Below are positions 34,574 through 37,148 of a DNA stretch of 64,000 nt, piece after piece. Origin of the DNA: Acidimicrobiales bacterium. GTDB lineage: Bacteria; Actinomycetota; Acidimicrobiia; Acidimicrobiales; Aldehydirespiratoraceae. The notes under the pieces are model-generated. The model worked only from the letters and a program-made list of their open reading frames with translations, searched no databases and had not been told where the DNA came from. Where the stretch lies: contig OY730440.1 in NCBI GenBank assembly GCA_963422655.1, forward strand, positions 2,041,442 through 2,105,441, read 5' to 3'. Each line of letters starts with the position of its first letter. Position 1 is the first letter of the stretch. A program made the translations under genes and the position numbers.

Positions 34574-35515
34574 GTGGCCAAGGAGCGTATAGAGAGGGAT
34601 GATGAGGACCTTGTCCGGCTCTACCTGACCGATATCGGCCGGTACCCGCTGCTCACCAAGGACGATGAGGTCCGCTTGGCCCAAAAGATCGAAGCCGGTG
34701 TGGCTGCCCGTAACGAGATGGAGAATTCCAGCAATGGATCGCTGACACCGGCTCGCAAGCGTTCGCTGCGCAAAGCTCTTCGCCAAGGCGATGTGTCAGA
34801 ACGCACTTTCGTGCAGTCCAACCTCCGCCTCGTTGTCTCCATTGCCAAGAAGTACCAGGCTTCGGGCCTTCCCCTGCTCGATCTCGTCCAGGAAGGCAAC
34901 CTCGGGCTGATGCACGCCGTCGAGAAGTTCGACTGGCGCAAGGGATTCAAGTTCTCGACCTATGCAACTTGGTGGATACGCCAGGCCATCACCCGCGGTA
35001 TAGCCAACACTGGTCGGACCATCCGGCTACCGGTGCATGCCGGCGACACGCTGGTCCGCCTTCAGAAGGCCCGATCCCGGCTCGAGCTGAAGAACGGACG
35101 GCCCGTCACCTTGGCCGAGCTAGCCGAAGATGCGGACATGTCCGAGGCCAAGGTCGTCGAAGCGCTCCGTTTCGCGTCCGAGCCCATGTCATTGTCGGAA
35201 CCGTTGCGCGATGACGGTGATACCGAGCTGGGTGACGTGGTGGAGGACCGTTCGGCCGAGTCACCCTTCGATGTAGCGGCCACTGCCCTGCTACCTGAGG
35301 AGATTTCTCGACTGCTGTCGCCGCTGGACAAGCGCGAGCGGGATATACTCAAACTTCGTTTCGGTCTCGACCGGGGCGAGCCCCGCACCCTCGAGGAGGT
35401 CGGGGAGTACTTTGATCTGACCCGGGAGCGGATCCGTCAAATCGAAGCCCGGGCCATGTCCAAGCTGCGCCATCCCTCCAGCGATACCGGGGCCCGCGAC
35501 TTGCTCAGCGTGTAG
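34574..35515 (+). CDS. RNA polymerase sigma factor, sigma-70 family group 1/2 (SigA/SigB-like)
   Basis: Region 1.2 YLTDIGRYPLLTKDDE, region 2 NLRLVVSIAKKY...DLVQEGNLGLMHAVEKFD...FSTYATWWIRQAITR, region 4.2 TLEEVGEYFDLTRERIRQIEARAMSKLRHP. Confidence 0.9.
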   Translation: MAKERIERDDEDLVRLYLTDIGRYPLLTKDDEVRLAQKIEAGVAARNEMENSSNGSLTPARKRSLRKALRQGDVSERTFVQSNLRLVVSIAKKYQASGLPLLDLVQEGNLGLMHAVEKFDWRKGFKFSTYATWWIRQAITRGIANTGRTIRLPVHAGDTLVRLQKARSRLELKNGRPVTLAELAEDADMSEAKVVEALRFASEPMSLSEPLRDDGDTELGDVVEDRSAESPFDVAATALLPEEISRLLSPLDKRERDILKLRFGLDRGEPRTLEEVGEYFDLTRERIRQIEARAMSKLRHPSSDTGARDLLSV

Positions 35516-35573
35516 CCCTGCGCCCGGCCGTTCGTCGGGCCGTCGAGCTTCCCTGGTTTGGACTGGGTAATAG

Positions 35574-35666
35574 CGGAGGTGGACGGGAATCGAACCCGCC
35601 GGACGGGGATCACCCGCCCCACCCGCTTTGAAGGCGGGGGAGCCCACCAGGCGCTCGGACACCTCC
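35574..35666 (-). tRNA. selC: tRNA with anticodon UCA and a long variable arm (selenocysteine tRNA candidate)
   Basis: Reverse complement: GGAGGTGTCCGAGCGCCTGGTGGGCTCCCCCGCCTTCAAAGCGGGTGGGGCGGGTGATCCCCGTCCGGCGGGTTCGATTCCCGTCCACCTCCG. 7-bp acceptor stem. Anticodon stem CCCGC/GCGGG with loop CTTCAAA. 6-bp variable-arm stem. GGTTCGATTCC T-loop, where the T stem can be drawn with 6 bp (7+6 = 13). Confidence 0.75.
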
Positions 35667-35821
35667 GATTGTGAGGGTAGCCACCGGGCGGGGCACATTT
35701 GCCTTTTCTTCTGGTTACGCTACCGGTCATGAAGCGACTATTCCTGCTAGCGGTGATCGTGGCGATCGCGGTAGTGCTGGCCCGCAAGATCAAAGAGACC
35801 TGACACTCCCCCCAACCGGTC

Positions 35822-36562
35822 ATGACCGCGGCCGTCACCGGTGTCGAGGGGTTCGCGACTGCCTTGGCGCCGGGGTCTCGGTCGCTTGTTGCCCTTGTGG
35901 GCGGCGGCGGCAAGACCACCCTGCTGTTCGCGCTGGGCCACGGGCTCAGGGGTCGTAGGCTGCTTACGACGACCACCCGCATGGGTCATGACCGCACCGG
36001 CGGATTCCCGACGCTGCTCGACCCGACCATGGCTGAGTTGGTCGCCGGCTTCGACGCCGGTGATGCCGTTGTCGTGTGGAAGTCGCTGGATGGGCACAAG
36101 GCGCTCGGTTTCGATCCGGCTGTGGTGGACCGGTGGTTCGAGGCCGGCGTTGCCGACCATGTAGCAGTGGAAGCCGACGGTGCTCGCCGCCGACCTTTCA
36201 CCGCACCGGCGCCGTGGGAGCCGCCCATCCCGGGCGCGGCCACTTGTGTGGTTGCCTGCATAGGGGCCGACGCGCTCGGGTACGTGATCGCCGACCGGCT
36301 CCACCGGCCTCTGCGGGTGGCGGCCGGGGCGGGCTGTTCGCCCTACGAACGATTTACTCCGGGCCGGGCCGCGGCCGCCCTCACCAGCACTCACGGCATG
36401 AGAAAGAACGTTCCTTGCGGGGCTCGGTTCGTGGTGGCCGTCACCAAGGTCGATCCCGGTGACGATCAGTCCCTTGCCCTGGCCGATGAGCTCGATCGGC
36501 GGGGGGTGGATTCGATCTTGGTCTCCAGGGCCGAAGAGCGGGCCGACTCGACTCTTCGGTAG
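35822..36562 (+). CDS. yqeC: YqeC-like selenium-dependent molybdenum hydroxylase accessory protein
   Basis: SLVALVGGGGKTTLLFALGHGLRGRRLLTTTTRMG matches the YqeC family pattern (GxGGKTT ... TTTT). Confidence 0.65.
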   Translation: MTAAVTGVEGFATALAPGSRSLVALVGGGGKTTLLFALGHGLRGRRLLTTTTRMGHDRTGGFPTLLDPTMAELVAGFDAGDAVVVWKSLDGHKALGFDPAVVDRWFEAGVADHVAVEADGARRRPFTAPAPWEPPIPGAATCVVACIGADALGYVIADRLHRPLRVAAGAGCSPYERFTPGRAAAALTSTHGMRKNVPCGARFVVAVTKVDPGDDQSLALADELDRRGVDSILVSRAEERADSTLR

Positions 36563-36581: not shown

Positions 36582-37148
36582 TCAGTCGCCCCAGCGGTCG
36601 AGGTCGTCCAAGGCGATGTCGAGGTGTTCGAGGGATCGGTGAACCGAATGGGTGACCAGATCGTCGATCGACACCGGACGGGTATAGAAGGCCGGCACCG
36701 GTGGGTAGACGACGGCGCCGATCTCGGCTGCTTGGGTCATGAGTCGGAGGTGGCCCAAGTGCAGGGGCGTCTCGCGCACCATCAGTACCAGTGGGCGGCG
36801 CTCTTTCAGGGTTACGTCGGCGGCCCGGGCCATGAGGTCGGCACCATAGGAGTGGGCCACCGACGAGAGCATCTTGATCGAGCAGGGGGCGATGATCATC
36901 CCCGCGGTGGTGAACGATCCCGACGAGATGGGAGCGGCGATGTCACGACTGGAGTGGACGGCGTCGGCCAAGGCTTCCAGGTCGGCGACTGTTCGGTTGG
37001 TTTCGTAGGCCAGGGTCTGCTTGCCCGGGCCGCTGATGACGAGATGGGTCTCGATGTCGTCGAGGGATCGGAGAGCCTCCAGCGTGCGGATGCCGTAGAT
37101 CACTCCGGTGGCTCCGCTGATGCCCACCACTATGCGCCGCCCCGTCAC
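36582..37148 (-). CDS. ubiX: Flavin prenyltransferase UbiX
   Basis: RIVVGISGATGVIYGIRTLEAL...APISSGSF...MIIAPCSIKMLS...RPLVLMVRETPL. Confidence 0.9.
   Translation of the reverse strand: MTGRRIVVGISGATGVIYGIRTLEALRSLDDIETHLVISGPGKQTLAYETNRTVADLEALADAVHSSRDIAAPISSGSFTTAGMIIAPCSIKMLSSVAHSYGADLMARAADVTLKERRPLVLMVRETPLHLGHLRLMTQAAEIGAVVYPPVPAFYTRPVSIDDLVTHSVHRSLEHLDIALDDLDRWGD

Follow-up and report, generated by a model that had tools for sequence, protein, structure and literature searches.

Bacteria insert selenocysteine (Sec) at UGA codons by an established route in which seryl-tRNA synthetase (SerRS) serylates tRNA-Sec, the product of selC, SelA converts the serine to Sec with selenophosphate from SelD, and SelB delivers the charged tRNA to UGA. 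In Escherichia coli, selC stands apart from both selAB and selD and is a site of genomic islands. Selenium also serves in a labile cofactor of molybdenum (Mo) hydroxylases, a trait for which YqeB and YqeC are markers (Haft and Self, 2008, PMC2276186; Zhang et al., 2008, PMC2432076) and whose signature has been given as YqeC, YqeB and SelD together (Peng et al., 2016, PMC5029168). Here, we analyse a stretch of 64,000 nucleotides (hereafter the window), positions 2,041,442-2,105,441 of the single-contig 3.0-Mb genome of an Acidimicrobiales bacterium (contig OY730440.1, assembly GCA_963422655.1), in which selC and yqeC are divergent neighbours. The whole contig was searched by profile for selenium genes. 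The public records closest to this genome are Acidimicrobiales metagenome-assembled genomes (MAGs), many of them labelled Candidatus Aldehydirespirator(aceae).

An earlier reading made from the letters of the window alone (the sequence-only reading) had noticed the two genes and implied a special link between the two selenium traits. Such a link is not supported, and the adjacency traces instead to an ancestral rearrangement. We consider it likely that selC and yqeC are two ordinary, functional selenium genes which became neighbours by historical accident and have been kept together because yqeC depends on a new upstream gene. More specifically, two ancestral loci, one ordered xdhC-yqeB-yqeC and the other consisting of a sigma-factor gene and selC, divergent from a small peptide gene followed by tadZ and cpaF, would have been rearranged in the ancestor of an Acidimicrobiales clade. 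The products would be selC divergent from peptide-yqeC on the one hand, and xdhC-yqeB-LLM-tadZ-cpaF on the other, LLM denoting the gene of an LLM-class oxidoreductase. Since then, selC would make tRNA-Sec for UGA clients, candidates including selD and an ArsC-like gene; yqeC would keep its canonical accessory role for an Mo-hydroxylase cluster 364 kb away, probably as a second cistron transcribed from the leaderless-type promoter of the peptide gene.

Identity of the two genes and of the selenium machinery

The tRNA-Sec gene selC occupies positions 35573-35666 on the minus strand. ARAGORN reports it as tRNA-SeC with anticodon tca and as the sole tRNA of the window, and the Rfam model RF01852 (tRNA-Sec) matches 35575-35666 over its full length with 65 bits (gathering score 47, E 5.7e-11). 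The UCA anticodon and the tRNA-Sec identity proposed by the sequence-only reading are thus borne out. So is its hand fold, with a helix of 13 bp made of a 7-bp acceptor and a 6-bp T stem and with a long variable arm. The remainder of the fold comprises discriminator G73, a D arm whose 6-bp stem has one bulged purine and closes a 4-nt loop, an anticodon stem of 5 bp with the loop CUUCAAA, and 7 bp in the variable arm. A covariation test of this fold, made with 14 distinct tRNA-Sec sequences of the order, found all cells (100%) paired and nine compensatory pairs, and none of 500 shuffles scored as high. The compensatory changes fall in the D and variable arms only, the acceptor and T arms being invariant, so that covariation does not separate the 7/6 split from an 8/5 split with a U-C mismatch. 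The genome contains a single tRNA-SeC gene.

The closest described relatives of this tRNA are those of mycobacteria, for which a 7/6 split with a total of 13 bp and the same GGAGG start have been reported (PMC13449736, RNA Biol 2026). Compared with the actinobacterial and mycobacterial selC of that report and with RF01852, the window tRNA is alike in its UCA anticodon, its 13-bp helix split 7+6, its GGAGG 5' end, its 6-bp D stem, its long variable arm and G73. It differs from the mycobacterial gene in the bulged purine of the D stem, in lacking an encoded 3' CCA, and in its location: it is not beside selA-selB, which lie 525 kb away. Most relatives encode the CCA where the window gene has CTA; because only 19 of the 50 tRNA genes in the genome encode CCA, its absence here is unremarkable. 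By analogy with the bacterial pathway, the window tRNA would be charged with serine, converted to Sec and used at UGA.

The start of yqeC, at 35822, lies 155 nt from the 5' end of selC at 35666, and the gene runs on the plus strand to 36562. It encodes a P-loop accessory protein of 246 aa which scores 128.2 bits on the YqeC model TIGR03172 (cut-off 73.05) and 101.5 bits on Pfam PF19842 (cut-off 27.6). With the GGGGKTT and TTTTRMG motifs both present in the translation, the YqeC assignment of the sequence-only reading stands. The gene is single copy in the genome, and its start codon is conserved among aligned relatives as GTG or ATG, preceded by a purine-rich stretch. An AlphaFold model of the protein (pLDDT 85, pTM 0.87) has ParA/ParF-type P-loop ATPases as its nearest, distant folds (TM ~0.4), and a sequence search against chains of the PDB gave no match. 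The modelled fold fits a nucleotide-dependent maturation factor, as the literature suggests, and by analogy YqeC is proposed to work with YqeB and XdhC in maturing a selenium-dependent Mo hydroxylase. The biochemical function of YqeC is not established even in model organisms, and a yqeC deletion in Clostridioides difficile had no clear phenotype (PMC11448449).

The sequence-only reading had seen no selA, selB or selD in the window. This is correct, and the whole-genome search places all three elsewhere on the chromosome, above their curated cut-offs, together with yqeB. The genes selA (392 bits) and selB (273 bits) are neighbours, ~525 kb from selC. The selD gene (366 bits; positions 1011393-1012316 of the genome contig) contains one in-frame TGA at 1011423, and its translation reads FSHGAG-U-GCKLAPG, with Sec in the catalytic loop at what we take to be the position of Cys17 in E. 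coli SelD. From its sequence, SelD is predicted to be itself a selenoprotein, and all selenium use of the organism would accordingly depend on tRNA-Sec. A second candidate selenoprotein is an ArsC-family open reading frame (ORF) at ~2949388, with TGA at the catalytic Cys position (IYHNQN-U-NSSRN).

The yqeB gene (293.8 bits; cut-off 220) is at 2,441,180, ~364 kb from yqeC, in a cluster that is without yqeC and is ordered flavin adenine dinucleotide (FAD) subunit, 983-aa Mo hydroxylase, SsnA-like amidohydrolase, XdhC, YqeB and LLM-class oxidoreductase. The 983-aa Mo subunit scores 668.6 bits on TIGR03313 (cut-off 1101.9) and 357.9 on TIGR03311 (cut-off 830); all enzyme subunits of the cluster remain under curated cut-offs, while the accessory genes fit. 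With known clusters for selenium-dependent Mo hydroxylases it has in common the FAD subunit, a Mo subunit resembling XdhD/TIGR03313, the SsnA-like amidohydrolase, XdhC and YqeB. Unlike the clusters of gut anaerobes, the present one is hosted by an Acidimicrobiales MAG, and yqeC has left it. The genome agrees with the published cofactor trait (PMC2276186, PMC2432076, PMC5029168) in having YqeC together with YqeB, SelD, XdhC and a xanthine-dehydrogenase-family enzyme. It departs from the usual loci in the placement of yqeC, which is 364 kb distant from yqeB, stands beside selC and comes second, behind an unrelated small peptide gene; yqeB and yqeC are also separate in C. difficile (PMC11448449). 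By its gene content, the lineage thus has both selenium traits, selenocysteine and the labile Mo-hydroxylase cofactor, with a selenophosphate synthetase that is predicted to be a selenoprotein.

Distribution and origin of the adjacency

We assessed how widely the arrangement occurs at three depths: in the family, among the closest YqeC loci, and elsewhere in the phylum. The family sample comprises 24 other genomes, with 11 genera in the family (in our labels, g stands for genus, f for family, L for locus and G for genome). YqeC is present in 23 of the 24, and a tRNA-Sec of 64-69 bits in all except G024, where the best match, 73 nt long at 50 bits, is probably not tRNA-Sec. A distance of 1.5 kb or less between the two genes is seen in only three of the 11 genera (g1, g4 and g5), and selC adjacency was not found at the YqeC loci of the eight others. 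Scanning the window YqeC against species-representative genomes gave 41 loci at 61-80% identity, 38 of which carry an intact, divergent tRNA-Sec ~200 nt upstream of yqeC. Of the other three, L105 starts inside the tRNA at a contig end, and L082 and L094, both from MAG 277c_9, have the last ~20 nt of selC replaced at the same T-loop breakpoint. The sequence past this break differs between the two (L082:5700-5830; L094:1100-1190), and in both the peptide gene and yqeC are intact. The truncated selC could reflect a loss of Sec decoding in this lineage or an insertion left unresolved.

Outside the class, 150 genomes of the phylum were sampled, of which 15 bear YqeC; no tRNA-Sec lies within 5 kb of yqeC at any of these 15 loci. 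In the sample searched, the selC-yqeC linkage is confined to one clade. The opinion of the sequence-only reading that selC beside yqeC is unusual is therefore confirmed, both by the 15 phylum loci and by the absence from eight other genera of the family. Its accompanying statement that selC normally travels with selA, selB or selD is too strong, judging from the E. coli arrangement. We found no description of the selC-yqeC linkage in the literature searched.

Gene order in the relatives indicates where yqeC came from. Five genera of the family (g6, g7, g8, g10 and g11) and a second family, f5, have the order xdhC-yqeB-yqeC, with the LLM gene next in g7 and f5. The window genome has the same xdhC cluster with yqeB leading directly to the LLM gene, and its only yqeC is the copy beside selC. 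In the YqeC tree, all selC-adjacent sequences group together in a single clade (support 100/100) whose sisters are the yqeB-adjacent sequences of g10, and with midpoint rooting yqeB-adjacent sequences stand on both sides of the root. A single clade with a yqeB-adjacent sister suggests a single relocation of yqeC. The branch to the relocated clade measures 0.49, and comparably long branches occur elsewhere in the tree.

The other half of the exchange is equally visible. In genera outside the clade, the peptide gene beside selC is followed by genes for tadZ-like and cpaF-like pilus ATPases; in the window genome, tadZ-cpaF come directly after yqeB-LLM, at 2443164-2444935 of the genome contig. Each of the five other clade genomes examined, which represent g1, g4 and g5 (L147-L151), has the same order: FAD subunit, Mo hydroxylase, SsnA, XdhC, YqeB, LLM, TadZ and CpaF. 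The clade thus shares two derived junctions, peptide to yqeC and LLM to tadZ, through which two ancestral loci have traded their downstream partners. Along the window chromosome, the sigma-factor gene and selC, divergent from the peptide gene and its new neighbour yqeC, are followed after 366 kb by xdhC-yqeB-LLM and its new neighbours tadZ-cpaF. Among clade genomes, the distance between yqeB and yqeC ranges from 155 kb to 1.2 Mb through later rearrangements, and neither junction is broken. We infer that one or a few rearrangements in the clade ancestor made both junctions. A model with a single inversion was rejected, as it fails on the position of the LLM gene and on the relative strands in g1 and g4.

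The membrane-peptide gene and the intergenic region

Between selC and yqeC, at 35729-35803 on the plus strand, lies a gene for a 24-aa single-pass membrane peptide (MKRLFLLAVIVAIAVVLARKIKET), separated from yqeC by 18 nt in the window. It is conserved in every selC-yqeC locus aligned. The peptides are 24-28 aa long with a single membrane pass and the consensus ...LARK[IV][KR][ED]x-stop, and length, stop position and hydrophobic character are all retained among relatives. Differences per pair number 9.95 at third, 6.49 at first and 3.79 at second codon positions; synonymous differences per pair number 5.25 in the reading frame but 1.84 and 1.22 when the frame is shifted. Because it evolves like coding sequence, both in its codon positions and in its synonymous excess, we regard the ORF as a real gene. 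Its motif occurs exactly once in the whole genome. No family of NCBIfam or Pfam reaches its cut-off on the peptide, the highest being DLW-39 (13 bits; cut-off 24) and DUF6893 (15.4; cut-off 24.6), and standard gene callers would probably miss the gene, which may interest cataloguers of small proteins.

The peptide gene is an ancient divergent neighbour of selC and a partner older than yqeC. In genera with yqeC elsewhere, the peptide gene is still divergent from selC, and their yqeC loci are without it. It is also found beside selC in four other families of the order (f10, f11, f13 and f17) and in two others of the class (f28 and f34). In total, the selC-peptide pairing occurs in at least seven families of the class, and a backbone of sigma-factor gene, selC where present, and peptide gene in at least eight families of Acidimicrobiia, one of them without selC. 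In that family, f18, the peptide gene is downstream of the same sigma-factor gene, and no tRNA-Sec was found in those genomes. A selenium-specific role for the peptide gene was rejected on this ground, since the gene persists with its sigma neighbour where no tRNA-Sec was found. Individual loci at which we noted the peptide gene are L045, L046, L048, L052, L134, L135, L137 and L142, in addition to all selC loci of the family.

Two conserved hexamers lie in the intergenic region. On the minus strand, the -10-like TACCCT at 35674-35679 is 7 nt upstream of the mature 5' end of the tRNA, within a block (CAGGGTAA on the plus strand) that is present in all 32 distinct intergenic sequences aligned. 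On the plus strand, the -10-like TACGCT at 35716-35721 is 7 nt before the ATG of the peptide gene, and aligned relatives have TACGCT or TACCCT at a constant distance from the peptide start codon; a similar box, TAGACT, precedes the peptide ATG in family f18. Judged by conservation and position, TACCCT is the putative promoter of selC, whose transcript would begin at or close to the mature 5' end, with hardly any leader, and TACGCT the putative promoter of a leaderless peptide-yqeC mRNA. The two boxes are ~36 nt apart in the genus of the window and ~120 nt apart in most relatives, and the DNA between them is conserved neither in sequence nor in length. No terminator-like site was predicted between the peptide gene and yqeC, and the two genes are probably co-transcribed. 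Expression as the second cistron of the peptide gene would explain why yqeC stays by that gene and hence by selC. As a side observation, positions 35686-35705 (plus strand), between selC and the peptide gene, hold a weak terminator-like hairpin followed by a T-rich run; most relatives, which have different DNA in this gap, lack it.

Competing explanations and flanking DNA

Several observations weigh against the account of a historical accident preserved by co-transcription. Scanned with the E. coli-type consensus, the DNA between selC and the peptide gene yields no promoter. The position of the LLM gene, after yqeC in g7 and f5 but after yqeB in the clade, and the relative strand of the two loci, which differs between clade genera, call for at least two steps or for another immediate ancestor. 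Furthermore, a junction kept over dozens of species amid rearrangement would also fit selection for the linkage itself. Such selection is the core of an alternative that we hold to be unlikely, namely that back-to-back promoters of selC and of peptide-yqeC co-regulate tRNA-Sec and YqeC as a selected selenium module. In its favour, every member of a clade rich in species has kept the junction while much else on the chromosome was rearranged, and both -10-like boxes are conserved; a coupling is also plausible given that the SelD of the YqeB/YqeC pathway appears to be a selenoprotein that needs selC. However, no shared operator is visible in the DNA between the boxes, variable as it is; the -10-like box of the peptide gene persists in genomes that have neither selC nor yqeC; the two loci with truncated selC keep the peptide gene and yqeC intact; and the arrangement has not recurred independently among the YqeC loci sampled elsewhere in the phylum. 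A related version, to which we give still less credence, sees the peptide gene, selC and the recruited yqeC as a functional selenium locus, in which overlapping divergent promoters would couple the supply of tRNA-Sec to YqeC and the peptide might act with YqeC at the membrane. If true, it would matter, because the SelD that feeds the YqeB/YqeC pathway is, by its predicted sequence, a selenoprotein. The sole functional tie between selC and yqeC that finds support is indirect: both traits would draw on SelD, and SelD would need tRNA-Sec. The role of SelD in the Sec pathway is established, and its supply of the cofactor trait has been proposed (PMC11448449).

Two further possibilities concern the proteins themselves. 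That the relocated YqeC has taken on a new role in the Sec pathway, for example on Ser-tRNA-Sec or in selenium delivery to SelA, is very improbable. The position next to selC, the scarcity of YqeC biochemistry with the silent C. difficile deletion (PMC11448449), and the fairly long branch of 0.49 leave room for it. Against these stand a YqeC equivalog model passed well above its cut-off; the fact that this is the only YqeC of a genome which retains yqeB, xdhC and the hydroxylase, so that the original role still requires it; and the presence of SelA, with which the bacterial route has no need of a kinase-type step. In addition, yqeC is intact where selC is truncated, and branches of comparable length occur elsewhere in the YqeC tree. 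We also considered a read-through fusion in which the TGA of the peptide gene is decoded as Sec to give a membrane-anchored peptide-U-YqeC. The peptide ORF and yqeC of the window are in the same frame with only TGA and six codons between them, and the peptide ends in TGA with yqeC in the same frame in ~31 of the 41 relatives as well. Yet eight loci are out of frame, including the two closest relatives of the window (L073 and L096), three have a TAG stop, and three have a second in-frame stop in the spacer. The hairpin predicted after the TGA lacks covariation support (covariation term +0.06, many broken pairs), yqeC has its own conserved GTG/ATG start behind a purine-rich stretch, and the peptide ends alike in genomes where yqeC does not come next. 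With neither frame nor stop codon conserved and the hairpin that would serve as selenocysteine insertion sequence (SECIS) unsupported, read-through was rejected as barely credible.

Under the explanation by ancestral rearrangement, the locus leaves known selenium biology unchanged, every component coming from a known family. Its value would be as a clean and datable example of a cofactor-maturation gene torn from its operon by rearrangement and surviving in another transcription unit, and as a caution against inferring function from adjacency alone.

On the 3' side of selC, a group-2-like sigma-70 factor gene (34574-35515, plus strand) is convergent with it; its NCBIfam matches are all under the equivalog cut-offs. 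The gap from this gene to the 3' end of selC is 57 nt (35516-35572) in the window, which we take as the 'empty' state. The sigma gene adjoins selC in ~15 relatives and is displaced or absent in others. In L075, L076, L079, L085, L086 and L100, the 5.7 kb 3' of selC, up to a block of sigma, NadE and GlnII genes, are hypervariable, with a cargo that includes IS30-like and IS5-like transposases, RCC1-repeat proteins, a macro-domain protein, an extracytoplasmic function (ECF) sigma/anti-sigma pair and a 1701-aa repeat protein. The selC of Actinomarina also lies inside a hypervariable region (bioRxiv 10.64898/2026.04.03.716425). The relatives resemble the selC hot spots of E. coli and Actinomarina in their varied 3' cargo and in the one MAG with selC broken in the T loop. 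Unlike the E. coli islands, they show neither an integrase nor an attachment repeat in the 6-kb flanks, and the window itself is empty, only 57 nt separating selC from the sigma gene. The tRNA 3' end is not repeated in the window or in the 6-kb flanks searched at the 41 loci, and no integrase was seen near selC among the ORFs inspected within those flanks, a scope that larger islands would exceed. An island integrated into the tRNA gene at selC is thus not supported.

Downstream of yqeC, a UbiX-family flavin prenyltransferase gene (36582-37148, minus strand; NF004685, 254 bits against 188) is convergent with it across a gap of 19 nt, and serves as a flank marker, its downstream position being kept across the clade. 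Most clade members have a 539-aa CrtI-like FAD oxidoreductase with a GGGHNGL motif between yqeC and ubiX (~6720-8340 in L076-L113); the genus of the window (the window, L073 and L096) is without it. One further record, L106 (VXNP01000078.1), was deposited as a MAG of a 'Gammaproteobacteria bacterium' and carries the Acidimicrobiales selC-peptide-yqeC locus. Its YqeC nests inside the clade, and the record is probably a binning error in public data.

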